This document shows positions 9,357 to 52,109 of a DNA stretch of 64,000 bases, one piece after another. The stretch spans positions 194,510-258,509 of IMG/VR virus record IMGVR_UViG_3300033463_000005. The stretch is one strand, 5' to 3'. The stretch's first letter is position 1; the number at the start of each line of letters is the position of its first letter. Position numbers and translations under genes: made by a program. The notes beneath the pieces are model-generated. The model made no database searches, was not told the origin of the DNA, and saw only the letters and a list, made by a program, of their open reading frames with translations. This DNA comes from a virus. Its lineage: Duplodnaviria; Caudoviricetes.

Positions 9357-9798
9357 TCAAACATCCCTTTCGTACACAGAATTCTCTTAACTCTGGGAGT
9401 AGAGTTGAATTGATATAATCTTCATGCAGGTCATACCAATCATTCCACATTAACTCAAAATACTTCGATTCTTCGAAACCAGTCATGGAGTCAGAAGCTC
9501 TGATTGCAAGTCGATACATCAGATATCTTTGCTTTAACGTCATTTCCTGCATATACTCCATCAGAGCTCTAACAAGATGACGTTCAGGACGATCCTTGTT
9601 TTCCGGTTTATCACAATCCGCAAGCGTTGCATTGACACACGCAATATCCAGGTTTTCATCATCAACAACGACATGCGCCATACCACCACATGAACACCCA
9701 TCCAATGTATAAATCATCCATGTCAACACGATGCAAATTTGCATATTTGGGTGCCATTGTACACGTTCAATATTTGTAGAATTCATTTTCTCATTCAT
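9325..9798 (-). CDS. hypothetical protein
   Basis: coupled ORF. Confidence 0.7.
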   Translation of the reverse strand: MNEKMNSTNIERVQWHPNMQICIVLTWMIYTLDGCSCGGMAHVVVDDENLDIACVNATLADCDKPENKDRPERHLVRALMEYMQEMTLKQRYLMYRLAIRASDSMTGFEESKYFELMWNDWYDLHEDYINSTLLPELREFCVRKGCLNELEEAVQTS

Positions 9799-10596: not shown

Positions 10597-10933
10597 ATCC
10601 CAATATCAATGTATTAAACTCCGCAGCGAAATACGATGTGTTGTAATGTTTTTCTTTGAATTGTTGATAAAATTTATCCAGACATTCAGTAGAGCAAATA
10701 TCATACCACTGAATGGAATCGATTGAATCATTGCCCCATTCACGATGTCCGGTATTGACACGGATATACACGGAATGTTCTTTGATTTCCTTTTTGCATA
10801 TATCACATGTGCAACCGGTTTCAAATATTTTTGTAAACTTATGTTTGATTATTTTACCGGTTGCTTTCTCTAATTTCTTGACTTCTTCCGGTGTATAATA
10901 TGCACACACCAATCTCTGTTTCATTCTTGCCAT
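10589..10933 (-). CDS. hypothetical Zn-binding protein
   Basis: CDIC...DICSTEC motif, GAAAGG RBS. Confidence 0.68.
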   Translation of the reverse strand: MARMKQRLVCAYYTPEEVKKLEKATGKIIKHKFTKIFETGCTCDICKKEIKEHSVYIRVNTGHREWGNDSIDSIQWYDICSTECLDKFYQQFKEKHYNTSYFAAEFNTLILGCD

Positions 10934-10949
10934 GTTACATCATCCTTTC

Positions 10950-11345
10950 TTAATCTGCAAAATTTCCGAACATTTCACGATTAAATGTGCCACCGTCTTC
11001 GATAATAATCGTGCGCGGTCCAGTATGTGTTGATAATCTGACAATACCAACTGTAGTACCCGAAAAACGTTTACCAACAACTTCCGACCATGAATACATC
11101 CGTTGTTGTTTTGTCGATGCATTCATTGCAAATGCATATTCACCGACAATATGTTCTGGTAATCTCCAACCAAATCCAGCAGGTTTGAAATATTGATTTG
11201 CTAAATGCTCATCAAATACTTCTTTCATGTTTGGTGGAATCTCAACATTTAGAACATCACCACGTTCACCCCGTCTCAATAAGATATCTCGGACAATATC
11301 AAGATCTTCTGTCAGGTTAATATCATATATTCCGATTTTCATCAT
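10950..11345 (-). CDS. hypothetical protein
   Basis: AGGAGG RBS before ATG 11345. Confidence 0.65.
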   Translation of the reverse strand: MMKIGIYDINLTEDLDIVRDILLRRGERGDVLNVEIPPNMKEVFDEHLANQYFKPAGFGWRLPEHIVGEYAFAMNASTKQQRMYSWSEVVGKRFSGTTVGIVRLSTHTGPRTIIIEDGGTFNREMFGNFAD

Positions 11346-35599: not shown

Positions 35600-37294
35600 A
35601 TGAGCAGAATTTCAAAAGAAGTGTCCGAACGACAAAAGACATTTGGTAATGAAATGCCGGATCTGAAAATCGTTCGAAACTTTATGAATGGGATTTCATA
35701 TAAACTCGATCCCATTCAGACCCTGAAGATGATTGCCGCTTCATCCATCTTCGGTGAACCTTCCTACTATCGGGAAGGTGGTCTGAAAGAGAAGAAAATC
35801 ACATTTAAAACAGAGGAAAAGTGTGATATCAAACCTCTGTTCAAAGATATGATTCTCAATAAGACTACCACAGAGGTATTTGAAGAAGCAATTGATGCAG
35901 CACTGGAGTATGACTTCGGTGCAACAATTCAACTTGCAATTGAATTGCGTGAGAAGTATCTCATGCGGTTGAATCCGCAAGTCATCATGGTTCGTGCCGC
36001 AATCCATCCTAGTAGAAAGGAATGGACAAAACACCATAAAGGTGAATTCATCACGGCAAACAACCGCGTGATGAAACGTGGTGATGAACCAGCAACCCAA
36101 CTGGCGTATTTTATCTATGTTACCGGATCGAAAGCCAATATGCCATCGATTCTGAAACGGTCGTTGGCTGCAAGACTCGGAACATTGACAAAATACGAAG
36201 TCAACAAGTATAAGAATTCCGAAATGGGTATGATTAATACCGTGCGTATTGTTCATGCAAATTCGGATGTTCTGAACGAGTTGATGGAGACAGGTTCCGT
36301 GTCAGTTGGCACGGAAGAAAAAACGTGGGAGAATCTTCTCTCGGATGGAATGTCATGGAAAGACCTAGCATTGCAGGTATATGCCGGTAATATTAAACTC
36401 CCTGCAATGGCATTGATCAGAAACCTTCGAAATATCTTTATGGCATTTGCTGCAGATAATTCGGTAAAACCCGAAGTATATCAGTTTTTCCATGATAAAC
36501 TCATCAAAGATGTCCCGTATGCCAGACAGTTCCCGTTCCGATACAAATCGGCATATAATGCGATTGAATCTTCGCCATTACCAATTGCAATCAAGTATCC
36601 GTTACTGGATACATTGTCGCAGTGCGTGGATTTATCAATTGATAATATGCCGCATTTGATGGGAACAACCGTTTGCTTGACGGATAATTCGGGTTCTGCA
36701 TGGGGCGGCTTCACCTCGGAATTCGGATCAGTTTGTGTTGCAAACATTGATAACCTTTCATCTGTGATTGCCGCAAAAGCATCCGATGCAGGTATGGTTG
36801 TGAAGTTCGGTGATAACTTCATCGAATATCCAATCTCCCGTCGTGATTCGGTTTTGACACAGGTTAAACCGATTGATGCCCGCGGTAGTTCTGATGTGGG
36901 TGGTTCCACGGAAGGTGGAATCTGGAAGTTCATGAAGAAAGCGATTACCGAAAAGATTCATTTCGATAATCTGTTTATCTTCTCCGATCAGCAAGCCGGT
37001 ACAGGCGGGTTGTATGGAACTTCCGAAGATATGTACGAATACTGCCAGAAAGGATACAATGTCCGTAGCAGAATGATTGATGTATTCGCACTCATCAATG
37101 CATATCGCAAGGCGGTCAATCCAAGACTGAATGTATTCTCGGTCCAGACTGCTGGATATAATAACCTTGTTATTCCGACCATGACATATCGGACAGCTAT
37201 GCTCACGGGTTGGACTGGTAAGGAGGTTTCATTCGCTGCTGAGTACATCAGACAGTGGGATGCAATCGAAATGAAATCTGGCAATAATATGTGA
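35600..37294 (+). CDS. Ro60/TROVE domain RNA-binding protein (Rsr-like)
   Basis: N-terminal NFMNGISY...FGEPSYY, TWE..LS, ALIRNLRNI, QFPFRY..AY TROVE motifs; vWA MIDAS DNSGS and IFSDQQ; C-terminal GW. Confidence 0.92.
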   Translation: MSRISKEVSERQKTFGNEMPDLKIVRNFMNGISYKLDPIQTLKMIAASSIFGEPSYYREGGLKEKKITFKTEEKCDIKPLFKDMILNKTTTEVFEEAIDAALEYDFGATIQLAIELREKYLMRLNPQVIMVRAAIHPSRKEWTKHHKGEFITANNRVMKRGDEPATQLAYFIYVTGSKANMPSILKRSLAARLGTLTKYEVNKYKNSEMGMINTVRIVHANSDVLNELMETGSVSVGTEEKTWENLLSDGMSWKDLALQVYAGNIKLPAMALIRNLRNIFMAFAADNSVKPEVYQFFHDKLIKDVPYARQFPFRYKSAYNAIESSPLPIAIKYPLLDTLSQCVDLSIDNMPHLMGTTVCLTDNSGSAWGGFTSEFGSVCVANIDNLSSVIAAKASDAGMVVKFGDNFIEYPISRRDSVLTQVKPIDARGSSDVGGSTEGGIWKFMKKAITEKIHFDNLFIFSDQQAGTGGLYGTSEDMYEYCQKGYNVRSRMIDVFALINAYRKAVNPRLNVFSVQTAGYNNLVIPTMTYRTAMLTGWTGKEVSFAAEYIRQWDAIEMKSGNNM

Positions 37295-37496: not shown

Positions 37497-37570
37497 GCCC
37501 CGGTACCCGAATTGGCATAGGGAGCGGTCTCAAACACCGTGTTTTGTCGGTTCAAGTCCGACTCGGGGTA
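37497..37570 (+). tRNA. tRNA-Leu(CAA), short variable arm
   Basis: acceptor GCCCCGG/TCGGGGT, anticodon arm GCGGT-CTCAAAC-ACCGT, T-loop TTCAAGT. Confidence 0.8.
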
Positions 37571-37674
37571 CTAACTGATGCATGGCATAGATGTTTGCTC
37601 CAAGCATCTATCATCAGTTATCGCGGAATGTATATATGCGGGCATTGCGCCCGCATATATACTATTTCCTTTTG

Positions 37675-38835
37675 CCATGTGTAATGTAATTGTATAGATT
37701 GGAGTGTGTAGTATGAGTTGTGGTGAAGCAGAGTACTGTGAAACCTAGTCGTGTGATGGCATAGTGCATTCACGTTCGTTTTGTTCAGGTGGAGTGGGGT
37801 ATGGTAAAGCATGGTTGTGTGCAGGCATGTGCTAGTGCAGCAGGGTCGTGTTCTACTATGTTCAGGTGAAGCATGGTTATGTTCGGCTACGTTTAGGCGA
37901 AGCAGGGTCTTGTTTCATTGCGTTACGGTGAAGCAAGATGCTGTTCGGCTATGTGGTGGCAAAAGCAAGGCAGTGTCCTATTATGTTCGGGCGGAGCTAG
38001 TCATGTTCTATTACGTCTAGTCCTGGTATGGTTAAGTGGGGAGCTGTACATTGATGGTTTGATCAAGTGATATGCGGTGAAGCATTGGCAACGTGGAGTG
38101 ACGTGGAGAACTGTCTCGTCACGGCGTGCGCTATAACGTATGGTGACGGCAAAGCAACGTAGTGCGCGTCCATGCGACGGTTTAGTACCGAGCAGCCTAC
38201 CTATGTAATGGAACTGTCGAGTCGTGTCACGCAGAGTTCAGTATTTGTGGGGGACTGTACAGTTGAGAAAGGCAATGTTCTGGCAGGGAACGGTCAGGTA
38301 GTATTGTGTTTAGGTGGAGTAAGGTCGCGTTTTGTTTAGGCGGAGTAGCGTGAAGTTCAGTACAGTTCTGGAAACGTAACGTGACGTAACAAAGCGTCTG
38401 GAACATTGATGCAACGGTTCGGTGCCGTAGTGGTGGTTTGTGCTGTGTCGCTATTGTGTTGTCCTGCGAGGGAACGTGGGGGCAGCGTTCGGTTGTGCCC
38501 CGTATCGCAAAGGCAAGGCACGGTAGTGCGCATCCTATGTGTAGGTGGAGTCTCGTTGCGAGAGGCAACGCTTTGTTATGGTTTGGCTTAGCCACATATT
38601 ATTTCGATACAGTATGGGTTTAATCTGGAGCTGTGATGGAACGGCACTGTTTAGCAAGGCAGTGTCAGGGTTATCCTATGCGTTGTAGAACCAAGCGATG
38701 GAAATGTTATGGTCAGTGTACTGCCGTAACGTCGTGGTATTGTGAGGTAGCGTCATGTAATGCTTAGGCAACGCCGTGTAACACAATGTCACGTCCCATT
38801 TCGTCATGGAACCGCGCTGTACACACAGTATGGCA
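37675..38835 (+). repeat. non-coding pentamer-periodic array 1 (NN-xRY units, ~31-nt super-repeat GGYRAAGC)
   Basis: GGYRA(A)AGC-like anchors at 37865, 37896, 37927, 37958, 37990 (31,31,31,32 nt apart) separated by pentamers such as ATGGT TATGT TCGGC TACGT; G/T-rich, no credible ORF. Confidence 0.85.
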
Positions 38836-38911
38836 TCTGCCACAAAGTATGTAATCCGACATTTTGAAATATAAATGTCGGATATGCATACTCTATATTA
38901 CTTATGTAAAT

Positions 38912-38985
38912 CGGGGTTTAGCTCAGATGGTACGAGCGCCTGGTTTGGGACCAGGAGGCCATCGGTTCGAGACCGATATCCCCGA
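38912..38985 (+). tRNA. tRNA-Pro(TGG)
   Basis: CGGGGTT acceptor, CCTGG-TTTGGGA-CCAGG anticodon arm, TTCGAGA T-loop. Confidence 0.88.
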
Positions 38986-38990
38986 CTCGT

Positions 38991-39131
38991 CATTCATTCA
39001 GTTGATGCAGTGAATCAAGATACTTCGGTTAATAATATTATTGGAAAAATATTTATAAGGTTCAAATCCTTAAACACCCCAGCGATAGTTGGAGTGACAT
39101 ATTCTTGGTTCGATATTCTCAACAATGAATG
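38991..39131 (+). ncRNA. candidate YrlA-like RNA (module copy 3 enclosing a T-arm)
   Basis: GTTGATGCAG-TGAATCAAGA-TACTTC ... TAAGG-TTCAAAT-CCTTA ... TCTTGGTTC-GATATTCTCAAC. Confidence 0.65.
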
Positions 39132-39140
39132 TTTGACAAC

Positions 39141-39306
39141 TGTCATCAATATAAGTGTAATTGGCATTGGTGAGAACGCCGTTGTGAGATGTGGAATTAA
39201 AGAACATCTATTAGTGTATATGGCAAACTGCAGATTGTCATATATGCCACAATTCGCGGGCATGGGTCGAATAACTACCCCGAAATTACAAACTGTATTG
39301 ATGACA
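39141..39306 (+). ncRNA. unknown structured RNA
   Basis: 11-bp closing stem TGTCATCAATA/TATTGATGACA enclosing internal hairpins. Confidence 0.4.
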
Positions 39307-39309
39307 AAT

Positions 39310-39403
39310 GGTCATGTCTTCTAGTGGCAAGATACTTCATACATTGCAAGGCGCCCTTGTATTGTGTATGATAGAGACTCCGGTTCGATTCCGGACGTGA
39401 TTT
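39310..39403 (+). ncRNA. tRNA-like RNA with long hairpin in place of the anticodon arm
   Basis: acceptor GGTCATG/CGTGATT, D-loop TAGTGG, T arm TCCGG-TTCGATT-CCGGA; TCATACA..CAAGG-CGC-CCTTG..TGTATGA hairpin. Confidence 0.6.
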
Positions 39404-39487
39404 TCGTGGCATAGTTACACACGTCGATACATATCGATGCAACCAGTGTGTGGTTGCGGCTATGTCACGTACCAACGATATTCATTT

Positions 39488-39659
39488 ATACAAGTATGCA
39501 AGTGGTCATAAGCGGCTCACGTAAGTGAGAGGACACCTAATAAAAATACTCGTTCATGATTTCTCGTCCACTTATGTGGCGATGCAGTTGAATGGGTTAC
39601 TTCGATTACATATAATTGATCACATTATGTGTACGCGGGTTCGAATCCCGCCTTGTATA
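39488..39659 (+). ncRNA. tRNA scaffold carrying permuted Y-like module (copy 4)
   Basis: acceptor ATACAAG/CTTGTAT, D-loop AAGTGG, T arm GCGGG-TTCGAAT-CCCGC; insert ACTCGTTCA-TGATTTCTCG..CGATGCAG-TTGAATGGGT-TACTTC. Confidence 0.68.
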
Positions 39660-39673
39660 TATGAATATCTATG

Positions 39674-39809
39674 GGAGGATTAGCTCAGTTGGTAGAGCAC
39701 GAAACATAACTCGTTGCGTTATTCTCGGGACCCAAAGTGCCCGATGCAGTGTGATGAGTTACTTCGCATATGGCGCGCGTGGTCGTAGGTTCGAGTCCTA
39801 CATCCTCCG
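39674..39809 (+). ncRNA. tRNA scaffold carrying permuted Y-like module (copy 5)
   Basis: GGAGGAT/ATCCTCC acceptor, canonical D arm TAGCTCAGTTGGTAGAGC, T arm GTAGG-TTCGAGT-CCTAC; insert AACTCGTTGCG-TTATTCTCGGG..CCCGATGCAG-TGTGATGAGTT-ACTTC. Confidence 0.75.
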
Positions 39810-39827
39810 TTCTAAAATTTATAAGAT

Positions 39828-39900
39828 GTGACATTAGCTTAGTTGGTAAAGCAATCGCCTTTTAAGCGATAGAGCATGGGTTCAAGTCCCATATGTCACA
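39828..39900 (+). tRNA. tRNA-Lys(TTT)
   Basis: GTGACAT/ATGTCAC acceptor, ATCGC-CTTTTAA-GCGAT. Confidence 0.9.
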
Positions 39901-39910
39901 TTAATTATAA

Positions 39911-39986
39911 TCCCGCATAGTTCAGTCGGTAGAACGGCGGACTGTTAATCCGTATGTCGTAGGTTCAAGTCCTACTGCGGGAGCCA
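39911..39986 (+). tRNA. tRNA-Asn(GTT)
   Basis: TCCCGCA/TGCGGGA acceptor, GCGGA-CTGTTAA-TCCGT, encoded CCA. Confidence 0.93.
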
Positions 39987-40330
39987 TCGTCGTCGAAGGC
40001 ATTGTCTTCGCCGACAAAAAGAAGTTCCATCCGACCAAAATCGGGAAAAAGAATTAGCGCCAGAATTCTTGGGTTATTGTCTGCCGCGATATTTCCTGCC
40101 TGGGTGAAATAGCGTCCTAGGTGAAGAACTGATGAGTGCACGCATCGGCATGTGTAGTTCTCAGAAGAGGTCTTCAACACGTGCAACACGTAGAGAAATC
40201 TCCGGCCAAGGGTCCTGGTTTCCGGATCAAGATTTCTCAACCGCACCGAAATCCGCGGCGCGGTAGATTAGGGCCCAAAATAGTAGAGGTGTGTTGAAGC
40301 GGGTACTTTAATCAGTTCTCGTGGAGCACC
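39987..40330 (+). ncRNA. unknown GC-rich structured RNA
   Basis: nested helices AGAACTGA/TCAGTTCT, CTTCAACAC/GTGTTGAAG, GAGAAATCT/AGATTTCTC; no ORF. Confidence 0.55.
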
Positions 40331-40334
40331 TCGG

Positions 40335-40429
40335 GGTGTATTAGCTCAGTGGGTAGAGCGCCAGTTCGTGGTTAGTGACTATGTCCTCATGAACTGTAGA
40401 GGTCGCGGGTTCGAGCCCCGTATACACTC
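40335..40429 (+). ncRNA. tRNA-like RNA with expanded anticodon arm
   Basis: GGTGTAT/ATACACT acceptor, canonical D and T arms, 9-bp CAGTTCGTG/CATGAACTG stem with 17-nt loop. Confidence 0.62.
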
Positions 40430-40434
40430 TTTAT

Positions 40435-40514
40435 TCCCGCATAGCTCAGACGGTAAAGAGCATAGCGAGCGGCCGTTAACCGCTAGGTCGTAGGTTCAAG
40501 TCCTACTGCGGGAA
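40435..40514 (+). tRNA. atypical tRNA-Asn(GTT) (insertion after D arm, C33)
   Basis: same acceptor and T arm as the 39911 tRNA; AGCGG-CCGTTAA-CCGCT; ~6 extra nt between D and anticodon stems. Confidence 0.62.
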
Positions 40515-40527
40515 CCGTTTCAATTAG

Positions 40528-40552
40528 TGAGGGGACCTTCGGGTCCCCTCAT
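40528..40552 (+). terminator. intrinsic terminator
   Basis: TGAGGGGACC-TTCG-GGTCCCCTCA then T-rich tract. Confidence 0.75.
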
Positions 40553-40573
40553 AAAAATTTTTATTTTTTTTTT

Positions 40574-40593
40574 AAATATATATTATTATAGTG
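40574..40593 (+). promoter_or_regulatory. putative phage early promoter
   Basis: AAATATATATTATTATAGTG, near-identical to 41597-41616. Confidence 0.65.
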
Positions 40594-40642
40594 ATGCAAT
40601 ACAAGAATTTGCATCAGAAAAAATATTTAGGAGGAATATACT

Positions 40643-41545
40643 ATGTCAAAACCGCATAATGAAAAGAGAGTTGAATTTGTATCAGCTCGCATCAAAGATC
40701 TGCAGGATACAATTGCGGCACTGCAGAAAATTCTTGACAATCCTGACATAGGCGAAAAACGAGTAGTTGAAGAACTCGGGTTAGACTTTGCGAAATATCG
40801 TCGCTTCGTTTATGATCTTACCTGGATAAACAAAGCGACAGTATCCGCAAATGTAACTGATATGAAGCCAATCAAAAACTGTGTAACATGCTGCTGGCAA
40901 GAATTGTTGTGGTTGGATATATGTCGTTGCAACTCGGCTAATATAGCTGTGGCGCCAACAGACACAGTTGAAACGATTGACAACATCATTTCGGAATTGT
41001 CCGAAAGAGAGCAATTGGTTATACATATGCGATTCGAGGAAGGTTTGTTCCTCGATGAATGTGCTAAAAGGATTGGTGTAACTCGCGGACGTGCTGGTGA
41101 GATTTTGAAACGGGCAGAGACGAGAATCAAATACAAGTATGACAGACTCAGACTTGGCGATGGTAAATATGGAACCATCATCGGAATGCAACGCCGATTG
41201 GAAGACGATCTCGAGATCAAAATAAAAAGAGAGATCATCGAGAAGTTGGACTGCAGAATCGAATCTCTTGCAGCCCTAATAAAGGATGCGTATAATACTA
41301 TAAATGGCGCTGAAGAAAAACAAAAAGAATCGACTTCCTATGTGAGACTATTGCGTTATACCCCGCTTGAAAATCTGGAATTATCGGTAAGATCATATAA
41401 TTGTCTGAAGCGAGCGGGATACAAATGTCTCAATGATTTCTGTGACAAAACTCTCACCGATATTAAGAAAATAAGGAACATTGGTAGGAAATCATACGAA
41501 GAGATTGTTGAGAAGCTCACAGAAGTGGGCATATGTTTGGAATGA
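40643..41545 (+). CDS. sigma-70 region-4 HTH fused to RNA polymerase alpha-CTD
   Basis: LSEREQLVIHMRF..GLFLDECAKRIGVTRGRAGEI (sigma r4); PLENLELSVRSYNCLKRAG...KIRNIGRKSYEEI (alphaCTD). Confidence 0.85.
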   Translation: MSKPHNEKRVEFVSARIKDLQDTIAALQKILDNPDIGEKRVVEELGLDFAKYRRFVYDLTWINKATVSANVTDMKPIKNCVTCCWQELLWLDICRCNSANIAVAPTDTVETIDNIISELSEREQLVIHMRFEEGLFLDECAKRIGVTRGRAGEILKRAETRIKYKYDRLRLGDGKYGTIIGMQRRLEDDLEIKIKREIIEKLDCRIESLAALIKDAYNTINGAEEKQKESTSYVRLLRYTPLENLELSVRSYNCLKRAGYKCLNDFCDKTLTDIKKIRNIGRKSYEEIVEKLTEVGICLE

Positions 41546-41596
41546 TAAATAAATTATTTATAGGAGCCTTTATGGCTCCTATATTTTTTTATTTTT

Positions 41597-41616
41597 GAAT
41601 ATATATTATTATAGTG
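41597..41616 (+). promoter_or_regulatory. putative phage early promoter
   Basis: GAATATATATTATTATAGTG after TAGGAGCC-TTTAT-GGCTCCTA terminator. Confidence 0.65.
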
Positions 41617-41667
41617 ATGCAAGTAAAGAAGTTTGCATCATAAACATTTAATGAGGAGGAACACAAA

Positions 41668-42771
41668 ATGATATTTCTTAAAAACATGCCGGAAAGTGAC
41701 AAGCTTCTAAAATATCTAAAACCATTATCATCTCCACCAACAGACGTTGTATCATTTATAAATGAGAAAGAGATGACAAAGTTCTATGAACTTATGCTTC
41801 CATCTGACTGTATCATCGATACGGAAATAACTGGAGAAGAGATGCAAAGTTTGTTGAAACAATTTGGGTATGATGATTATGAGGGAGCAAGCCTCACAAA
41901 AAGAGAACGGCGAATTCCACTTGACTTTGTCGTTGCAAATACAATACCATTGAAAACCATCGAAATATCATGGTTCGATGAAGATGGGGATCAATATATA
42001 ACTCAAAAACTATGTTTGTCTGAAGATGTTACGGTGATGAGATTTGATGAATCTTTATTGGACACGGACCCTACCATGGTTTACACAATCATCGATCATA
42101 CAACATTATCGGATTTAAGACATTACATCAGTACAAAAACCAACGAAGATCTTGACACGATGCGATTTATCATTGGATCAATGGAAATCTCTCGCCACAT
42201 AAATGATGTCGGTGGATCTATGCGATGTTTAATCGTCGCATTCTATGATTCATTCGAAGTTGGTATTAATCCAATCATCGACAAAATTACCGCATATGAT
42301 AAAACACGAATGAATACAATATCTGATGGAAACATTTCTATGGAAGAAGCTGAAGTTATCACATTAGCGGCAACATTGTCTGAAGACATCACAGATGCAT
42401 TGGCTTCTTTTTACTCTGTGAATGTTGGATTGTTGAATCCGGTGATACAAGAAGTGTATCAGAAAAAGACTTCCAGGATTGCGCAAGAGAGTCACACATT
42501 CAAAAAGTATCCCGACAAAAAGAAGAAAATCAGGTATGTGAAAAAGCATCTAATAACGATGTTGGATGTTGAACACGAATTTGCAAAACGCGGATTTGTT
42601 AGAAAATCGATGATCTGGTATGTTACCGGTCATTGGCGTGAATACAAGTCTGGAAAGAGAATATTCATCCAAGGATATTGGAAAGGTGCATTGCGTCATT
42701 CCAAGGATGATGTTATCCCGAATCTTGAACCAAGAGAACGGGAACTGGTGATACCTGAAAAGAGCGAATAA
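41668..42771 (+). CDS. hypothetical phage protein
   Basis: 367-aa ORF, GAGGAGG RBS, C-terminal WYVTGHWR..KSGKRIFIQGYWKG motif. Confidence 0.78.
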   Translation: MIFLKNMPESDKLLKYLKPLSSPPTDVVSFINEKEMTKFYELMLPSDCIIDTEITGEEMQSLLKQFGYDDYEGASLTKRERRIPLDFVVANTIPLKTIEISWFDEDGDQYITQKLCLSEDVTVMRFDESLLDTDPTMVYTIIDHTTLSDLRHYISTKTNEDLDTMRFIIGSMEISRHINDVGGSMRCLIVAFYDSFEVGINPIIDKITAYDKTRMNTISDGNISMEEAEVITLAATLSEDITDALASFYSVNVGLLNPVIQEVYQKKTSRIAQESHTFKKYPDKKKKIRYVKKHLITMLDVEHEFAKRGFVRKSMIWYVTGHWREYKSGKRIFIQGYWKGALRHSKDDVIPNLEPRERELVIPEKSE

Positions 42772-42817
42772 ATGCTAATCATAAATAACTAGTGAAATTA
42801 AATGAAGGGAGAAGCAA

Positions 42818-43306
42818 ATGAAAAAGCCTAGTAAAGAAGATATGGTATTAATACCAATTATAATTTTCGGAGTTGTCATGATGATACTAACAATAATCTC
42901 AGATCATGGTAAATCCAAAACAAACGTAATTGAGGAAACAACTATCACTGAGTCAGATACAACAACGACAACAACGACAACAGAAGTGCCACAGACGACT
43001 ACAACAGAAAAGGTTACAACGACAACTACTACCACTACGACATCAACTGTTGTAACCACAACAACAACAGATGTTACAACAACGACATCAACCACGACAA
43101 CAACGGAAACATCCAAATTGATGACATATGATATTTTACAAAGAATCGAAATCATCAATATTTTATTGGATGAGACAAAATATGAGCGTTTAATTAAAAA
43201 GGATCCGTCCAAATTAACCAATGATGAACATTTGGAATTATACTATTATAATTCATTGGTGATGGAACGGAAACAACTTCGGGAATATCTCGATAAAAAC
43301 AAATAA
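42818..43306 (+). CDS. membrane-anchored Thr-rich protein
   Basis: N-terminal TM helix then ~55-aa poly-Thr linker. Confidence 0.75.
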   Translation: MKKPSKEDMVLIPIIIFGVVMMILTIISDHGKSKTNVIEETTITESDTTTTTTTTEVPQTTTTEKVTTTTTTTTTSTVVTTTTTDVTTTTSTTTTTETSKLMTYDILQRIEIINILLDETKYERLIKKDPSKLTNDEHLELYYYNSLVMERKQLREYLDKNK

Positions 43307-43319
43307 GGAGGAAGATGTA

Positions 43320-45953
43320 ATGGAAACTTCTCTTGATCTTATTGGCGTAGCACTCCGCTTTGTTAAATATGTAGATTTTGCGAATACTTTACATAGATAT
43401 GCAATATTTGAAATTGGTCGCGTTGGTGGCAATATAGAACTAAAAGCACTTGAAAAAGCATACGCATCTCAGTTATGTCAAATACCTGGTGACCTGACGA
43501 ATGGTATCCTACAACAAAAGCAAGTACATGATAACTCTGGATGTTATACGGTGCGCCTTTGTCTGTTCATTGGCAATATTTTGGACGGGGCAGACCTGAT
43601 CGAGAAGGGGAGCGATGCAACGAAAGTAACCATCACTTATGAAACCGGTAATATACGACCATCATTGAAAAGCATTAAACGCATGACCGCCTATGGTAGA
43701 CCGTGGTTTGAACGCTATCCTGTCGACTGGGATGCAACGGAAGAGACGGAAGCGTTCAAGAATAAACTCGAGGTACTTGCACACCTGTTCGAAGATTTTC
43801 CTCATGCAACAAGGTGTGCAAATATAACTCATAAAAACACTCTGGCGTTTCTTGCAGTACGGCTCGGCCATATTGTCTTTGACATTGGCCGAGGGCGATT
43901 CGTCACAATTGTCCAACAAAAACACGAACCTGAATTGCTAGACCTGATTCTTACTGACACATCAGTGAATCAAGTCTGGATTTTGAACCAGGTATCTTCA
44001 ATTGTTGAAGATGAAAAACCCTGGTGGTGGAGTTCAGGATTCCCATATGTCAGGGGTGAAGACATTTTGTCAGAAATTGCCGCATTGCAGATAGACATCG
44101 TAACATTTCTGGCAGAGCGCAAAGACCGCTATCAGAAACTTGCGGCTCATATTCTGGAAAATCATGAGGATTCTACGTCTGCTGACACAACAAAGACAGA
44201 GGAGGAAAATGCAATGAATTCCGAAAAAATCGAGTTCCCGGAAAGTGCCCCGAAGAAATGGGTGTCACTGTATGGTGATCTCCACGAACTTTTCTCAACG
44301 TGGTGTCGAAAGCGTGGAGCGACACTGGAAGAATTTGTGTGCTCACATGGCGGTTTTCCGGATTATCCACAAGGCATTTATTTCAATATATTGAGGAAAT
44401 TCTCCTCAGAGTCAAAAGATAAATTAAGGTTCACAGTTCATTATGACGATACGTTTAAAACTGTCGCAATCAGATTCTTTGCATACAACATTGAGTCTTT
44501 TCACGTAACCACTCCGAAAGAACGGCTTCAGATCAGAAGTATCACATTTTGTGAACCTATATTCAAAAGCTTTATTGGAGATAAACCCTCCGAGCATCAG
44601 ATTTATTGTTCACAAACAAATGGGGACCCAGAAAGCAAAACCAGTGCTGACTGGAAACCGGTTGACGTCATTCGGGAATATTTCGGTAAAGAATTTCTCG
44701 ATAAGATTGGTGAAATCTTTGCGAAATATGTTCCGAAGGAGACAGCCATCTTCGAACCCGGGATTATTCTGAAATGGGAACTCTGTTCGGAATACAAGTT
44801 CTTCAATGAACTTCGGACGGAGATCGACAGATACTTCAAACGCTGGTTTTCGGAAGATGTATCTGTGTCACAAATCATTTTCTCTGAAAACAAGGTTGCA
44901 TGGGAAATCCAAATGACCGATGATAGAAAATATCGGGCAGAGTTGACACATGACACAAATCGCAATACTGCGATTTGTGTCCATGACGATATACTGAGAT
45001 TCTTCAAACAGGGAACTGGATTCGTAGAAAGAAAACTCGCTATGTATGAGCTTGACTATGAATTCGGTGAAAGTTTCTATCACGGAATAAAACGTATCTA
45101 TGAATATATCCGTATGCAGGTATTAAACATTGTCAACGCAGAAACACAGAAATCGACATTGCCGAAATTGGCATTGTCAGAAGAAGAACCCTATATCTTG
45201 CCGAAAGAAGAATTCAAAAAGATAACCGAGGATCTTAAGAAACTCGCTGAATCAACATCTAAGGAGGAAAAGAAAATGAATGAAAAGAAGGAATTTAACG
45301 CATTCGGAGAAGTTCTGAAAAGACTTGCCGAAAGATTGACAACGGAGACACAGGAATCAAAAACTGATGATCCGATATTCCCGCATTTCTCAACATCCAA
45401 GGACGGAGTGAAACTTGTGACTATACCGTGGGATGTTTATCGTAATATGACGAACACTCAGTATGGTATGACCACTACAATAGTGAAAGATCGCGCTTCA
45501 ATGATAATGAATGCGTTCTGGAATCCTAAAACCGGTGTCGCAACTATTCTCTGGGCGGATGGTTCGAAGACCATGTCAAAGCCCATGGAAGGAACCACTC
45601 CGGATCCGGAAATCGGATTTGCCATCTGCATTGCAAAGAAGATAATGGGTGGAACCCAGAATAAATGGAGAAAGTGGTTGAAGAGCACCATCGAAGCATC
45701 TACAGCTTCCGCCAAGAAGAAAAGTGACAAGAGTCGTATCAAGCTGGAGAAACAGGCTCGTGCACGTCTTGATGCTCAGCAGATCACAGAACCGTCTGAT
45801 GTTCAACTTACAGAAATGATTGAGACAATCATCAAAGAAAATGCAACACGAAACAGACCAAATGTTTCTGTTAAGTTCATTGACCATTCGTATGACGTAC
45901 TTGATAAGCCGGCTCCTAAAAAGAGACCCGGCAGAAAGAAGAAAACCAACTAA
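43320..45953 (+). CDS. large hypothetical protein with conserved C-terminal phage domain
   Basis: 877-aa ORF; ATILWADGSKT...DPEIGFAICIAKK domain. Confidence 0.8.
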   Translation: METSLDLIGVALRFVKYVDFANTLHRYAIFEIGRVGGNIELKALEKAYASQLCQIPGDLTNGILQQKQVHDNSGCYTVRLCLFIGNILDGADLIEKGSDATKVTITYETGNIRPSLKSIKRMTAYGRPWFERYPVDWDATEETEAFKNKLEVLAHLFEDFPHATRCANITHKNTLAFLAVRLGHIVFDIGRGRFVTIVQQKHEPELLDLILTDTSVNQVWILNQVSSIVEDEKPWWWSSGFPYVRGEDILSEIAALQIDIVTFLAERKDRYQKLAAHILENHEDSTSADTTKTEEENAMNSEKIEFPESAPKKWVSLYGDLHELFSTWCRKRGATLEEFVCSHGGFPDYPQGIYFNILRKFSSESKDKLRFTVHYDDTFKTVAIRFFAYNIESFHVTTPKERLQIRSITFCEPIFKSFIGDKPSEHQIYCSQTNGDPESKTSADWKPVDVIREYFGKEFLDKIGEIFAKYVPKETAIFEPGIILKWELCSEYKFFNELRTEIDRYFKRWFSEDVSVSQIIFSENKVAWEIQMTDDRKYRAELTHDTNRNTAICVHDDILRFFKQGTGFVERKLAMYELDYEFGESFYHGIKRIYEYIRMQVLNIVNAETQKSTLPKLALSEEEPYILPKEEFKKITEDLKKLAESTSKEEKKMNEKKEFNAFGEVLKRLAERLTTETQESKTDDPIFPHFSTSKDGVKLVTIPWDVYRNMTNTQYGMTTTIVKDRASMIMNAFWNPKTGVATILWADGSKTMSKPMEGTTPDPEIGFAICIAKKIMGGTQNKWRKWLKSTIEASTASAKKKSDKSRIKLEKQARARLDAQQITEPSDVQLTEMIETIIKENATRNRPNVSVKFIDHSYDVLDKPAPKKRPGRKKKTN

Positions 45954-45966
45954 TTAGATGATAAAT

Positions 45967-45986
45967 GGGGGCGCATATGCGCCCCC
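45967..45986 (+). terminator. GC palindromic hairpin/terminator
   Basis: GGGGGCGC-ATAT-GCGCCCCC. Confidence 0.65.
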
Positions 45987-46024
45987 TGATTTTATCATTA
46001 ACAACATAATTATTTTAATTTTAA

Positions 46025-46044
46025 AAATATATATTATTAATGTG
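46025..46044 (+). promoter_or_regulatory. putative phage early promoter driving the RAMP-like gene
   Basis: AAATATATATTATTAATGTG followed by 5' hairpin AATAAAGAGG/CCTCTTTATT. Confidence 0.62.
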
Positions 46045-46271
46045 AAATAAAGAGGATAAACCACGCAGTTGGTAGTTCCTCTTTATTATGGTCATCTCCG
46101 ATAATCCCAGAAGTTATCGGTTATGATAGATTCGATGTGGGTAGTAGCAAATCAGATGACAATGATTTGTGAATCATACCACCGCGATATGCGCACGTGT
46201 CATTGTACCGTATCATCAATCTGCGGTATATAAATGGATTGAACATCATTTATAGGTTAGGAGAAAAAATT

Positions 46272-47099
46272 ATGGCAGCGAAGAAAGCAACTACTGAGAC
46301 AACTGCAACCACCGAGAAGAAGGGCGTGCTCAAGACATATGAACTGCCCGTTCACATCACATTCATGGAAGGTGTTCTGGGTACACTTCCGAACGACAAA
46401 GAGATTCTCAACAGCTTCATTACGTCGAAATCGGCAGATGCGGTTTCCCGCACGGATGAAATCGAAGCAGTCGGTATCGAAGAAGTTATTGAGAAGGGAA
46501 AGACGGTATTTCCGCGTGATGCGGAAGGCAGACCCTTCATCTATGACTATCAGTTGAAGGGGTTCTTCAAAGAGAAGTGCTCCTTCTTGAAGAACATCAA
46601 CGGAACAGAGTCGGCGAAGATGACGGCGTTTAAGAAGAAGATTGATGGTCTCTTCTTCATCAAAGACCGCCGGAATCCGATCACAATCACTGACGGTCTG
46701 AGCATTGAATCCTGCCAGAGACCGCTGCGTGCAGAAACCGCACAGGGTCCGAGAGTTTCTCTTGCGAATTCGGAAGAGATTCCTGTCGGATCTGAATGCG
46801 ATTTCACGGTTCTTGTCTTTGACAAATCCCATATTGATATTGTCAAAGAATGGCTGGAGTACGGTATCGTACACGGCACGGGTCAGTGGAGAAATTCCGG
46901 TAAGGGACGTTTCATCTGCGAATTCGGCGAAGTCTCCGAAGGCGAAATGACCTATGCCGAGCACATTAAGCGTGCAAAGGCGGCCATCAAAGCCGAAGTT
47001 GCCCAGAAGATTCTGGAGCAGCAGGAAAAAGAAGCCGAGAAGAAACGTCAGCGGGAAGCTGCTGAAGCAGAAAAGGCCGCAAAGAATGCCGGTAAATAA
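46272..47099 (+). CDS. stand-alone RAMP/Cas7-like RNA-binding protein
   Basis: beta1-Gly VHITFMEGVLG; PFIYDYQLKGFFKE (Cas7/Csm3 P.I....LKG motif); thumb QRPLRAETAQGPRVSL; EEIPVGSECDFTV; Gly-rich loop YGIVHGTGQWRNSGKGRF; AGGAG RBS; strong codon bias. Confidence 0.82.
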   Translation: MAAKKATTETTATTEKKGVLKTYELPVHITFMEGVLGTLPNDKEILNSFITSKSADAVSRTDEIEAVGIEEVIEKGKTVFPRDAEGRPFIYDYQLKGFFKEKCSFLKNINGTESAKMTAFKKKIDGLFFIKDRRNPITITDGLSIESCQRPLRAETAQGPRVSLANSEEIPVGSECDFTVLVFDKSHIDIVKEWLEYGIVHGTGQWRNSGKGRFICEFGEVSEGEMTYAEHIKRAKAAIKAEVAQKILEQQEKEAEKKRQREAAEAEKAAKNAGK

Positions 47100-47177
47100 A
47101 TCATAAATCGTAAAGCCCCGTATTTTATGTATGATACGGGGCTTTACATTCATATACACTTGAAAGGAGGAATATGA

Positions 47178-49418
47178 ATGCCCGATAAAAATGATTGTTT
47201 TTCTTCGGTTATGAAAGAAATAAACAACCCATACAAAGCATGTGTGGATAAAATCTACACAATGATCGAGGACACAATTTGGTTGTCTTTAAACCGGGAG
47301 AAAGCACTGTATTCAATGTACTACCCTGATGAAACATCAACTGGTAGAAAGACTGAATTTACCATGAGAAAGAGTGATAAACAATTCGGTCTATATCGGA
47401 CAAATGATTATGTCGCTGGCATAATCGATGTATGGAATGGAAGTAAGGTTCATATTCCATACACGTATACCGTAAAACCGGATGACCATATTTCCATCCA
47501 AAGATGGAACACATATGATCATGAAAATGGCATTTCAAAATGCCACATTCAGTGTTTAATCAATGATGTGAATGCCAAATTATTGGAGCATTTCAGTAAA
47601 TTGTTGATTAAACCTGCACGGTGTACAACATTCGATGATGTATGGAATACAGTCATTTCATATATCAGTAAGTATTGTTCGCGGTCGATCACATGGATGA
47701 AACTGGAATCGACCAAGAATGACGAACGTACCCGAATCACAATTTCGGAACAGTATCGGAATGTTGACAAGCACATTGATGTCATGACAATCAGTGTCAT
47801 TGATCGAGATCTGCTTATGACAATTCCGGCTGTTGAAGTTGTCAGCACATATGGAGCAGAATATTACAAACAGATTCTGCAGTTTGCTGGTCAACTATCT
47901 CGGATTCTTTGTGACTGTCAAGATGAAGGGATTATCAAGAAACCGGATGCCGACATCAATATGACGATGGGGATAATTCGGATGTGTTGTGTGGTGCCTG
48001 GATGTAGCTGGATTACGATCACACAAAATCCAAAACTTGCAATTGTAAAATGTGGCGGTGTCGAAATGCTTCGACACGATATAATTGATAGGGACAATAT
48101 TATCACAACAATCACAGAAGAAGCATTTTGCGATGAAATACATCTTGGAACGGTATATCGGTTGATCAATCATTTGATATGTTCATTTGGATATACTCAT
48201 ATTAAATTTGACATGTCCACTGTCAACTATCAAAAGATATATGAGTTCATTCATACGTATTTATATCAGCATCTATCGAATTCCGATCTTTGCAAGTATT
48301 GTGCAGTATGTGATACGGATATGTCTACAATTATATTTGATGAACGTGATATTCCAAAAAAGGAATTATTGCGAATCCAATATACAGATATCGGATTGAA
48401 ACTGATTCTTTGTTCGGATTTAAAAACACCTCTCCGAGTAAATACAAATTGGAAGATCAAACACATACTTCCAATTTTGAGAGAATTCTGGGAATATTCC
48501 AAATATCCAGAACCAGTTGTCACCAGTGAAGAAATCGGTTATCCCGATGATATAACGGAGGAAAAGAAAATGAAAACTACAATCACAAAGGAATTCATGC
48601 AAAAAGAATTCCTGAAACTGTGCGGAATTATTCAGAATGAAATTCAACCGATATTGAATGATGTCGCCCTGCTGGGTGGCGATTGGGCTAATGCTGGTAC
48701 TGCGGGATTGATGTGTTGGAGTGTGTATCATGCCGCGTCGTATCGGAATCGGAATATCGGTGCCCGCCTATTAAATGATGATACTTTGGCAGTGTGGAGT
48801 GGTGAAAAACACAACCATGTCATAGAAATCAGATTTTCAACAGACTATACACATGGCTTTTATATTCGGATTGATGATCTGAAACGTCATCAAATGCATG
48901 AACCGATCACTGCTAATTTCTTCGAGACTTTATATGACAAATGCATTAATGCGTTTGACGACGATCTGTGGGAAGAAATTGGTTATCCAAATGATATAAA
49001 GCCTGATATTGATGAATCCGATGACATGTATAAACTATGGCAGTACTTCGGTAAGACCTATTTACGTGATCCAAAACTAAAAACATTTCTTCCATATGCA
49101 CCATCCTTTGAAAATGTAGATCGTCTGGTATTCAATGGACCGGCGACAATTGTCTATTGGAAGGATGGCACAATGACAGTTGTCAAAGCTACAAAGGGTG
49201 AGACAATTGATCCCGAAAAGGGATTCGCAATGGCAGCACTCAAGAAGGTAAATGGCAATACTGCCAATTACATGAGAAAGCTGTCAAAGCTTTTTAAGAA
49301 AGCAGAAATCATCGAACCCACAAGGAAGAAGAAGGCCAAGAAGAAGAACACCGATATTGTAACAACTGCCAAAACACCGAAGAAAACAACCAAGCAGAAG
49401 GTTGAGCCAAAAGGGTGA
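47178..49418 (+). CDS. large hypothetical protein with conserved C-terminal phage domain
   Basis: 746-aa ORF; FNGPATIVYWKDGTMTVVK...DPEKGFAMAALKK domain; internal repeat EEIGYP(D/N)DI. Confidence 0.8.
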   Translation: MPDKNDCFSSVMKEINNPYKACVDKIYTMIEDTIWLSLNREKALYSMYYPDETSTGRKTEFTMRKSDKQFGLYRTNDYVAGIIDVWNGSKVHIPYTYTVKPDDHISIQRWNTYDHENGISKCHIQCLINDVNAKLLEHFSKLLIKPARCTTFDDVWNTVISYISKYCSRSITWMKLESTKNDERTRITISEQYRNVDKHIDVMTISVIDRDLLMTIPAVEVVSTYGAEYYKQILQFAGQLSRILCDCQDEGIIKKPDADINMTMGIIRMCCVVPGCSWITITQNPKLAIVKCGGVEMLRHDIIDRDNIITTITEEAFCDEIHLGTVYRLINHLICSFGYTHIKFDMSTVNYQKIYEFIHTYLYQHLSNSDLCKYCAVCDTDMSTIIFDERDIPKKELLRIQYTDIGLKLILCSDLKTPLRVNTNWKIKHILPILREFWEYSKYPEPVVTSEEIGYPDDITEEKKMKTTITKEFMQKEFLKLCGIIQNEIQPILNDVALLGGDWANAGTAGLMCWSVYHAASYRNRNIGARLLNDDTLAVWSGEKHNHVIEIRFSTDYTHGFYIRIDDLKRHQMHEPITANFFETLYDKCINAFDDDLWEEIGYPNDIKPDIDESDDMYKLWQYFGKTYLRDPKLKTFLPYAPSFENVDRLVFNGPATIVYWKDGTMTVVKATKGETIDPEKGFAMAALKKVNGNTANYMRKLSKLFKKAEIIEPTRKKKAKKKNTDIVTTAKTPKKTTKQKVEPKG

Positions 49419-49479
49419 ACGAACCAATATTTTAGAAGAGTTTCAAAATGGGTGCCATATGGCACCCATTCTCTTCGTT

Positions 49480-50590
49480 GTAAAGTATAAGTATTGGTCT
49501 TGTATGAATCTGTGCTGATATGTACTGGTAGAGTAGGGTTATGTGGCGAGGTGTAGATGATTCGTCGTGTAACGTCTAGGTTTGGTATGCCATGATCATG
49601 TCATCCGCGTCCAGGTACGGTCAGGCTTCACATGTTAACGTGATACAATGCATCGGTGAAGTCCTGTAATGTTTAGCTGTGATGATTGTAATGGATTCGT
49701 CATGCAACGCCAAGGCAAAGTGTTATGATGATTAGTGACAGACGGTGTCGGTGAAGTGCGGCGAGGAAGCGTATGATTTCGCATGGGTTTGACAAGGTGG
49801 AGGAATGTGGAACAACGCGTTGGTTTTGTTTGGTTTAGTAATGCAAAGGCAACGTGGGGCTGGGTTTGGTTTGATTCGGTTTGGTAACGGCCTAGATAGG
49901 TTATGTCTCGTATGTCGGTGTTCCGGTGCAGTCCAGCAGAGCAGTGTCAGCACTGTCCTGGTATCGTGTGGCAACTCGAAGTTACGATATGATTCGCGAT
50001 TGTAAGGCAAGGTATGATGATGCTTTGGCAAAGAGAAGCGATGTCGGATCTCGTGGGGTTTTGTGCCGGTGAGGCGTCGTTTAGTTTCACACCGTGTCGG
50101 TACTGAAAAGTTAGACTATGTAGCGGCATAGTCATACGATGTTTGGGCTGTGTTTATCAGTGTGCTGGTTCTGCAAAGTAAAGTGGTGTCCTGTATGGTG
50201 TTGGTGATGTGCAGAATAGTGATGTTTCGGCGTTGTAAGGCTGTGCGGAACATCGTGTTGGTACAGTGTCGAAGGCTTGTGTTGTGTCGGTGTGGTGTTG
50301 TGACATCTCATATCGTAGCGTGGGGTATGGTGTATCCTAGTTTGTATAGGCACCGTACTCTCCCGTTTCATACCGCGAAGTTATGTGATGGCGCCGTAAT
50401 GTCAAACTACGTGGCGTCCGGTCCTGGCAAAGCTCACTCTTGTGCAGTAAAGGTTTGGCACTGTCATATTGAGTGCTGTGCTGGCAACGTACCATTCTGC
50501 ATCATATCGTGTTGGTATGGTGACGATGCGTTGCGTACAGTTGCACAAGGTTACGCCGAGGTAAATCATGGCCTAATTATGCAATGACCG
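49480..50590 (+). repeat. non-coding pentamer-periodic array 2
   Basis: e.g. 49856-49885 GGGGC TGGGT TTGGT TTGAT TCGGT TTGGT; 50287-50331 TCGGT GTGGT GTTGT GACAT CTCAT ATCGT AGCGT GGGGT ATGGT; GGYRAAGY-like anchors. Confidence 0.82.
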
Positions 50591-50646
50591 CAAACCAACA
50601 AAATATTTCGCAGAGTATCACAACTATAAGATACTCTGCGAAATAT

Positions 50647-50728
50647 GTCTGCATGGCGAAATTGGCAGACGCGTAGGATTTAGGTTCCTATGTCGAAAGA
50701 CGTCTCGGTTCAAATCCGAGTGCAGACA
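50647..50728 (+). tRNA. tRNA-Leu(TAG)
   Basis: GTCTGCA/TGCAGAC acceptor, TAGGA-TTTAGGT-TCCTA, long variable arm. Confidence 0.9.
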
Positions 50729-50735
50729 CTCATAT

Positions 50736-50782: not shown

Positions 50783-51328
50783 GTGAATAATTATGATGAT
50801 ACAAATTTATATGCAATTTTTGATGCATTTATGAAATATGGTGATTTTTATCCACATGAGATACCAGGATTTCCTGGCTATTATATCAATAGATTTGGAA
50901 TTATGTTTGATAAAAATAGAAATGAAATTGAACCATACCAATATCCAAATCAATATAAAATGGTATATTTAACTGATCAATACGGGAATCATCGTGTTTT
51001 TGGAATCCATCAACTTGTTGCAATGACATTTGATCCAGATTGGTTTCCAGGTTGTATTGTCCATCATATAGATGGAAACAAATACAACAATAATGATTGG
51101 AATTTAGAATGTATGAGTCGTGCACAACATACATCAATGCATAATCCATTACGTTATATTGATAAAATCGAGACATGTGATATTTGTGGTAAAAAATTTA
51201 TATGGAAAGCAAGCACTCAACAATATTATTATTCCGATATAAAGCGTGGTGTTCATCGTATTAAAACATGCTCACCAAGTTGTCAGTCATATGCTGGTCG
51301 AATGACACAACTAGGTCGAGCATATTAA
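50783..51328 (+). CDS. HNH homing endonuclease (NUMOD4-HNH)
   Basis: IPGFPGYYINRFG, IHQLVAMTF, VHHIDGNKYNNNDWNLE, C-terminal Zn motif. Confidence 0.9.
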   Translation: MNNYDDTNLYAIFDAFMKYGDFYPHEIPGFPGYYINRFGIMFDKNRNEIEPYQYPNQYKMVYLTDQYGNHRVFGIHQLVAMTFDPDWFPGCIVHHIDGNKYNNNDWNLECMSRAQHTSMHNPLRYIDKIETCDICGKKFIWKASTQQYYYSDIKRGVHRIKTCSPSCQSYAGRMTQLGRAY

Positions 51329-51632: not shown

Positions 51633-52109
51633 ATGAATAATTTAGACACAAACGTGACCGGATTACTAACAGAAATGCAAGTTCAACGAGAATTCATAAA
51701 ACGCGGTTTTGGAGTTTCTGTTCCATTAAACCCATCTGAGCGATATGACTTAATCGTTGACGCATTTGGTGGATTATTCAAAGTCCAAGTAAAAACAGCA
51801 ATTGATCTCGAATCAGATGATGGTTTTATGATATATACATCATCTGTTCACAAAAAACATGGTGTGTGGGACAGAAAATGTTATGACGAAAATGAGGTTG
51901 ATTTGTTTGCAACCGTACATAATGACACTGTTTACGTTATCCCATATCCCGATGCCGGAACAATGTCACAGATAACACTTAGAACAAAACCAACCAAAAA
52001 TGGTCAAGAGATTAATATTCATTATGCTGATCACTATGAATTGGATAACGTAATAGGCAGATGGAATAATTTAACTGATTCTAATAAGCAACAACTGCTT
52101 ATTGAATAA
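51633..52109 (+). CDS. PD-(D/E)XK homing-type endonuclease
   Basis: G..TE...FIKRG..VSVP....RYDLIVD......VQVKT...Y...EVDLFA pattern. Confidence 0.85.
   Translation: MNNLDTNVTGLLTEMQVQREFIKRGFGVSVPLNPSERYDLIVDAFGGLFKVQVKTAIDLESDDGFMIYTSSVHKKHGVWDRKCYDENEVDLFATVHNDTVYVIPYPDAGTMSQITLRTKPTKNGQEINIHYADHYELDNVIGRWNNLTDSNKQQLLIE

Follow-up and report, generated by a model that had tools for sequence, protein, structure and literature searches.

A lone RAMP protein and two staggered pentamer arrays in a gut-type jumbo phage point to a VIPR system without guide tails

The final 64 kb of one 258,509-bp viral contig (IMG/VR record IMGVR_UViG_3300033463_000005; G+C 38.8%), a stretch of 64,000 nucleotides called the window below, carries the gene of a small RAMP protein, Vipr, and two non-coding tracts written in 5-nt steps. 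We assign this locus, with a probability of roughly 0.85, to the VIPR systems, and within them to the kind with staggered, tail-less arrays, because the protein has a RAMP fold and a Vipr-like loop rich in glycine (the G-loop), and because protein and array occur together throughout the family. In 2026 preprints, VIPR was described as a minimal RAMP, Vipr, that assembles one protomer per step on vrRNAs built of GGY/NN steps, the resulting ribonucleoprotein binding DNA while leaving out each third base of the target, and silencing rival mobile elements. In type II the filament binds matching double-stranded DNA and blocks transcription, and types III-V carry nucleases (2026 preprints). The kind of VIPR found here is already published, and the present locus is a new example of it, not a new discovery. 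A preliminary description of the window, made from its letters, had proposed a lone RAMP acting on pentamer-coded RNAs of the VIPR type, a proposal that the comparisons of sequence and predicted structure, the co-occurrence data and the literature support. The carrier is a gut-type jumbo phage of 258 kb, rated by IMG/VR as a virus and 96% complete; a near-DNA search of the region against GenBank phages gave no match.

The vipr reading frame starts with an ATG eight bases downstream of an AGGAG ribosome-binding site. An AlphaFold model of the protein, built with 31 homologues (pLDDT 79), showed a RAMP fold with a thumb hairpin at about residues 146-170, a G-loop at 202-214 and a K/E/A-rich C-terminal helix of 45 residues. 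When the model was compared with the PDB by Foldseek, it matched type VII Cas7 and Csm3 (E 2.5e-8, probability 1.0), and VIA-align gave a Z of 12.6 for Csm3, followed by 12.3 and 12.2, the best 24 chains all being RAMPs. These comparisons bear out the RAMP/Cas7-like nature that had been suggested for the protein from its letters, and reveal a minimal RAMP that stands alone and has the RRM core, the thumb and the glycine-rich loop expected of a Vipr. The matches listed in the two comparisons do not include PDB 36pp, the solved Vipr of Escherichia phage SUSP1. Moreover, the family profile, searched against PDB sequences, detected the G-loop of type VII Cas7 and Csm4 (E 0.002-0.003), and the best BFVD match, which is 55% identical, already bears the name "Cas system-associated RAMP superfamily protein". 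No model in Pfam or PHROGs matched the 275-residue protein.

The two array tracts (Table 1) are poor in open reading frames (ORFs) and clearly periodic. Against mononucleotide shuffles, autocorrelation at lag 5 reached a z of 9.0 in the first tract (37675-38835) and 8.3 in the second (49480-50590), and at lag 31 a z of 10.9 and 5.8, respectively; both peaks anticipated in the preliminary description, at 5 and about 31 nt, were thus found. In both tracts the peaks drifted along the series 5, 10, 15/16, 21, 26 and 31, and TRF picked up a 31-nt period at 37839-37908. The same autocorrelation was flat for the pentamer signal in two ORFs neighbouring the arrays, and the array tracts themselves gave no signal at lag 3 or at 10.5 nt. 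Sliding scans of the window and of the whole 258,509-bp genome detected a strong 5-nt signal in these two tracts only. As a positive control, the periodicity scan recovered the published vrRNA regions of phage SUSP1 (KT454805).

A phase-tracking hidden Markov model resolved the step as NNN-G-Y, with G at 86% and Y at 91% (T 64%, C 27%), the base preceding G-Y being nearly free (T 34%, A 23%, C 23%, G 20%). The unit had earlier been read as two free bases followed by a constrained xRY; its constrained GY stood, whereas x proved to be close to unconstrained. Arrays 1 and 2 do not follow the canonical GGY/NN unit of VIPR, yet membership is not thereby excluded, because NNN-G-Y equals YNNNG, which the VIPR authors list as an alternative unit along with NNNGG and NNNNG (10.64898/2026.04.26.720920). 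The regular steps were interrupted by phase slips, and by far the commonest class (55 of 81) added one base where G meets GY (G|GY). Since the slip is of one base, unit lengths take the form 5k+1 nt; a slip every 4-8 steps mostly yields units of 31 nt (18 cases), followed by 36 (8), 26 (6), 21 (4) and 41 nt (3), within an overall range of 21-46 nt. The totals of about 31 and 30 units in Table 1 count units of at least four steps. Units abut directly and no recurring tail was seen, so that neither array consists of the ~100-nt vrRNAs with a conserved structured 3' tail that characterize type II systems like that of SUSP1; an Rfam search of the arrays detected no hammerhead and no other family. 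Staggering of this sort appears in the legend of fig. S18 of the same preprint, where each vrRNA begins as the previous one ends, shifted by 1 nt (10.64898/2026.04.26.720920). Guide content is hypervariable: none is shared between arrays 1 and 2, nor with relatives whose Vipr is 59-61% identical.

The G-loop of the protein, GTGQWRNSGKGRF, matches GVGDWRPRFGRF of the solved SUSP1 Vipr, and both alignments used paired the two loops (G-T-G-Q-W-R-N-S-G-K-G-R-F here, G-V-G-D-W-R-P-R-F-G-R-F in SUSP1) over the pattern G-x-G-[D/Q]-W-R-x2-3-G-R-F. According to a cryo-EM study, in SUSP1 Vipr the first G of GGY is read by D177 and H17, the second G by W178/R138 and the pyrimidine by R179 (10.64898/2026.04.26.720927). 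In our alignments D177 corresponds to Q205, which is invariant in the present family, W206 and R207 are kept and likewise invariant, and H17 aligns, at low confidence, with the near-invariant T38. Arrays that keep G-Y and free the first G are what these correspondences would lead one to expect, and the D177 to Q and H17 to T replacements fit a residue-level account of why the anchor would be G-Y rather than G-G-Y.

The homologues form a very large family, with 3,428 clusters at 90% identity and 1,603 at 50%. A typical member has about 197 residues; the present Vipr and the members closest to it are extended by an N-terminal tail and the K/E/A-rich C-terminal helix. A strong pentamer tract touches the homologue gene in 78 of 80 loci from bacterial genomes. 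Gut Clostridia make up most of the hosts, and Coriobacteriia and Bacteroidota are also represented. Each of the six metagenome loci analysed (L002-L007) likewise carries such a tract by the homologue; the co-occurrence suggested as a check in the preliminary description was therefore obtained in both sets. Because 26 family arrays have the same grammar, with a G anchor, chiefly one-base slips and a median unit of 18-36 nt (mostly 26-31), the 31-nt super-period and the degenerate anchor are a norm of the family and not a local oddity. The window had been described as divergent on account of these two features and of arrays detached from the gene and lying in tRNA operons; all three are real, but the first two are published and general in the family. 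The second base of the anchor varies within the family (GY, GM, Gn), as shown by a prophage (L006, 10627-10860) with a short 208-residue homologue, whose purine-rich array has the G anchor with no pyrimidine after it.

Three related phage contigs (L002, L004 and L005) provided the Vipr sequences of 59-61% identity and a conserved gene order: TROVE, tRNA-Leu(CAA), array, tRNA-Pro, more tRNAs, several genes, a large protein, array, vipr, array, a 226-residue gene, an array of 1.4-2.1 kb and tRNA-Leu. Of these, the window has retained the two distal arrays with their flanking tRNAs. Both proximal arrays are missing, as is the 226-residue gene, which has no homologue in this genome; a gene for a 746-residue protein stands in that place. 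Each relative has four to five arrays (851-1900, 9401-9675, 10851-11100 and 11801-13200 in L002, and likewise in L004 and L005), about 3 to 4.2 kb in total, with roughly 100 or more guides, many of which the three contigs have in common apart from a few point changes. In these orthologous guides the anchor G changes least, at 1.3-2.2% compared with 2.8-9.2% for the free bases.

Several observations weigh against assigning the locus to VIPR. When the two family profiles were compared, the characterised Vipr clade showed weak sequence homology to the present one (hhalign E 6e-4, probability 28%, 96 columns). The arrays lie 7.4 kb (array 1) and 2.4 kb (array 2) from vipr, the two proximal arrays of the relatives being absent here. 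No vap partner was recognised beside vipr in family and fold searches of the flanking proteins or in the relatives, and target searches of the phage's own genome, its relatives, IMG/VR and JGI metagenomes yielded nothing convincing. On the other hand, a class 1 CRISPR-Cas system, with its repeat-spacer array and Cas5/large-subunit effector, was not detected either: nine ORFs neighbouring vipr had no match to cas genes in Pfam or PADLOC, the remainder of the genome not having been screened for cas, and TRF found no CRISPR-type repeat-spacer array within the window, in agreement with what had been read from the letters.

Both arrays are embedded in the tRNA cluster, whose order beside array 1 is kept in the relatives (Table 1). 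Array 2 ends 57 nt upstream of tRNA-Leu(UAG), and the long distal array of the relatives likewise extends up to a tRNA-Leu. A GC-rich hairpin stands about 10 nt ahead of each array start, and at its far end each array closes with a hairpin that borders on a tRNA. The closing hairpin of array 1 has the same loop, TTTGAAATATAAA, in relative L002, while its stem letters differ with pairing preserved. The motif CGTTGTAAAGT opens four array starts, that of array 2 and three in relatives, and array 1 has a divergent version; a role of this motif as a genome-wide promoter was ruled out, as the genome holds three sites at no more than one mismatch. Array 1 directly follows a gene for a 564-residue TROVE/Ro60-like RNA-binding protein (35600-37294; PHROG 850, E 4e-35; Pfam TROVE, E 5.5e-6) that is syntenic in the three related phages. 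Within 2.5 kb after the TROVE gene there follow, at 39609-39809, a weak YrlA (Y-RNA-like) Rfam match, whose 25.8 bits fall short of the gathering score, and a tRNA-like gene that contains a long insert. Two adjacent tRNA-like genes at 40334-40516 (Rfam tRNA, 43.7 and 52.2 bits) could not be assigned by ARAGORN, which gave them 4-base and 2-base "anticodons". Just past array 2, two homing-endonuclease-like genes, one of them HNH (50783-51328 and 51633-52109), sit among tRNA genes, and the relatives hold an HNH gene at the equivalent place. The proteins flanking vipr, of 877 (43320-45953) and 746 residues (47178-49418), matched no informative family or fold, and the ESM Atlas gave no lead for them, the models being poor (pLDDT 0.41-0.43); both have a short C-terminal module in common with the one protein of 1,087-1,350 residues that lies upstream of vipr in the relatives. 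A 300-residue protein (40643-41545) joins sigma-70 region 4 (E 7e-10) to the C-terminal domain of the RNA polymerase alpha subunit (E 9e-22), an unusual fusion for a phage transcription factor.

Table 1. Positions of the vipr gene, the two arrays and the elements around them (window coordinates).
Feature	Position	Strand	Remarks
vipr, minimal RAMP of 275 residues	46272..47099	+	RRM core, thumb hairpin, G-loop, C-terminal helix
vrRNA array 1	37675..38835	+	about 31 staggered units, 227 NNN-GY steps, no conserved tail
vrRNA array 2	49480..50590	+	about 30 staggered units, 217 NNN-GY steps
Candidate-target guide, 8 steps	50515..50556	+	free triplets match a Cys-rich ORF, candidate only
tRNA-Leu(CAA)	37497..37571	+	5' neighbour of array 1; order kept in L002, L004, L005
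Hairpin, 14 bp, GC core	37630..37662	+	immediately 5' of array 1
Closing hairpin of array 1	38846..38892	+	precedes tRNA-Pro
tRNA-Pro(UGG)	38912..38986	+	3' neighbour of array 1; order kept in relatives
Hairpin, 10 bp	49447..49470	+	immediately 5' of array 2; also transcript end of the 746-residue protein gene
Leader motif CGTTGTAAAGT	49476..49486	+	start of array 2
Closing hairpin of array 2, 17 bp	50603..50646	+	abuts tRNA-Leu(UAG)
tRNA-Leu(UAG)	50647..50729	+	3' neighbour of array 2

By analogy with published VIPR systems, from which RNA binding, processing, DNA targeting and silencing are all extrapolated, the locus may be expected to work as follows. Both arrays would be transcribed from the plus strand, probably within tRNA-operon transcripts. 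Vipr protomers would bind one per 5-nt step, pockets of the G-loop and thumb holding G-Y and the free bases being displayed. The extra G at each GGY junction would break the register, so that the long RNA would give about 60 short filaments of 4-8 protomers, most often six. Each filament would then bind the double-stranded DNA of whichever competing phage, satellite or prophage it matches, and keep that DNA from being transcribed.

The targets of these guides were sought with several decoding schemes. Guides of the window, read under seven rules against the phage's own genome and the related loci, gave no excess of matches over shuffled guides, and neither did guides of the relatives read under two rules (NNN and NNx) against this genome. 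The gapped search with two bases per step that the preliminary description had recommended fared no better: when eight guides were scanned in IMG/VR with two-bases-plus-wildcard patterns, five had matches and three had none, and the set of five is not significant because simulated per-guide p values of 0.59, 0.96 and 0.54 stand beside 0.018 (guide 50515-50556) and 0.13 (guide 50168-50203). Of the 116 matches of the first of these guides, 55 fell on a conserved element that is not in an open frame and were treated as a chance match. This element, about 40 nt long and highly conserved, occurs on 55 separate viral contigs of mostly 4-8 kb (L191:2044-2081 and 54 further loci, L088-L203).

The best two guides bear on the question of whether each 5-nt step might read three contiguous target bases, NNN, without the skip of the published rule, in a system otherwise like VIPR. 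If so, six-step guides would specify 18 bp rather than 12, a number that seems too small for unique targeting. In 10 IMG/VR contigs, guide 50515-50556 agrees at 23 of 24 bases, seven of the eight third bases that the published rule would skip among them, with a Cys-rich ORF that has a weak helix-turn-helix signal, and guide 50168-50203 matches small basic ORFs, as candidate targets, at 20 of 21. The near-freedom of the base before G-Y points in the same direction, as does its rate of change in orthologous guides, which is about that of the second free base. Against this, the p values listed above are jointly non-significant, no further guide matches the contigs hit by these two, and scans of JGI metagenome contigs with a 12-step pattern and with the exact 24-mer of guide 50515-50556 gave no match. 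Array 1 contains one stop triplet in the sense frame where 9.4 were expected, which would agree with guides copied from coding sequence, but the arrays of the relatives show no such depletion, and across the family as a whole (z -7) it comes mostly from a shortage of TAG and CTA, a symmetric deficit that any natural DNA displays. Stop-codon depletion was thus rejected as a decisive test of a three-base code. All in all, we regard a three-base code as doubtful. A combined proposal for the staggered G-Y clade, in which three contiguous bases per step make guides codon-by-codon copies of rival genes and tRNA-processing enzymes of the cell free the ~60 guides from tRNA-operon transcripts, in place of a dedicated tail or ribozyme, is somewhat less probable again.

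Other explanations concern what the arrays and the filament are for. The closest solved folds are the RNA-targeting Csm3, Cmr4 and type VII Cas7, VIPR types III-V carry nucleases and HNH genes lie near, so one could imagine a filament that acts on RNA, or that recruits a nuclease to destroy its target, rather than silencing transcription of DNA; as the nearby HNH proteins score as homing endonucleases sited among tRNA genes, and no nuclease is syntenic with vipr across the relatives, we consider this improbable. It is more improbable still that the main task of the arrays is to decoy or redirect the Vipr of rival phages instead of guiding the phage's own protein. Solo vrRNAs of satellites and of phages without vipr do hijack foreign Vipr, according to one preprint (10.64898/2026.10.15.759431), and the present arrays are detached from vipr, but this phage has a Vipr of its own that is intact and in which the residues predicted to read the anchor suit the G-Y of the arrays, and the relatives also keep arrays directly flanking vipr.

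The arrays could, finally, be unrelated to the RAMP, being spacer or cargo RNAs of the tRNA/Ro60 (TROVE) cluster or a structural repeat at the DNA level. The position of array 1 directly after the TROVE gene, among tRNA-like and Y-RNA-like elements, is what such an explanation would draw on. The pairing of a Vipr homologue with the same grammar in 78 of 80 loci of other genomes speaks against it, as do prophage L006, the sole such locus with genes listed, which shows no TROVE gene, and the absence from the arrays of a 3-nt or 10.5-nt signal and of any Rfam family. This is the least probable of the explanations considered, and a VIPR system with staggered, tail-less arrays remains the reading that we prefer.

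The locus adds a well-dissected jumbo-phage example to a class of systems only months old, and leaves the published picture of VIPR unchanged. Short, tail-less, register-shifted guides are the normal form in this Vipr family, a very large one spread over gut bacteria and phages, and the way in which arrays keep their place next to tRNA genes suggests a route by which guides may mature. Targets, once recognised, would reveal what this phage fights.

Among known systems, the closest are the YNNNG and staggered arrays of VIPR (10.64898/2026.04.26.720920). Like the present locus, they combine a single minimal RAMP encoded by a virus with 5-nt steps, partly fixed and partly free, and with guides that abut at a one-base register offset, lack a tail and are hypervariable in their free bases; the present arrays differ in exceeding 1.1 kb each, in lying kilobases from vipr within a tRNA cluster behind hairpins, and in having no vap recognised nearby. 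The type II system of SUSP1 (PDB 36pp; KT454805, 28474-29061) has the same RAMP architecture, the G-x-G-[D/Q]-W-R...G-R-F loop and pentamer RNAs flanking the Vipr gene, which our scan recovered. It uses strict GGY/NN steps in four guides, ~100-nt vrRNAs of 9-16 steps with a pseudoknotted tail, next to vap1, whereas the present system has a G-Y anchor only, units of 4-8 steps, no tail and about 60 guides, and its Vipr has D177 and H17 replaced and the extra 45-residue C-terminal helix. The non-canonical WGT/NN and TGH/NN anchors found with a genomic language model (10.64898/2026.10.21.760802) resemble the present ones in their degenerate first base and in an adjacent Vipr-like fold, but those motifs are said to repeat 10 times, while the arrays described here are split into short units by phase slips. 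Finally, the Cas7 backbone of class 1 CRISPR systems (Csm3, Cmr4, type VII Cas7) shares the fold, the thumb, the G-loop and the principle of one protomer per fixed RNA step; it differs from the present locus, whose surroundings have neither a repeat-spacer array nor genes for Cas5, Cas6, Cas10 or adaptation, and its step is 6 nt, compared with 5 nt and sequence-specific anchors in the arrays of this phage.

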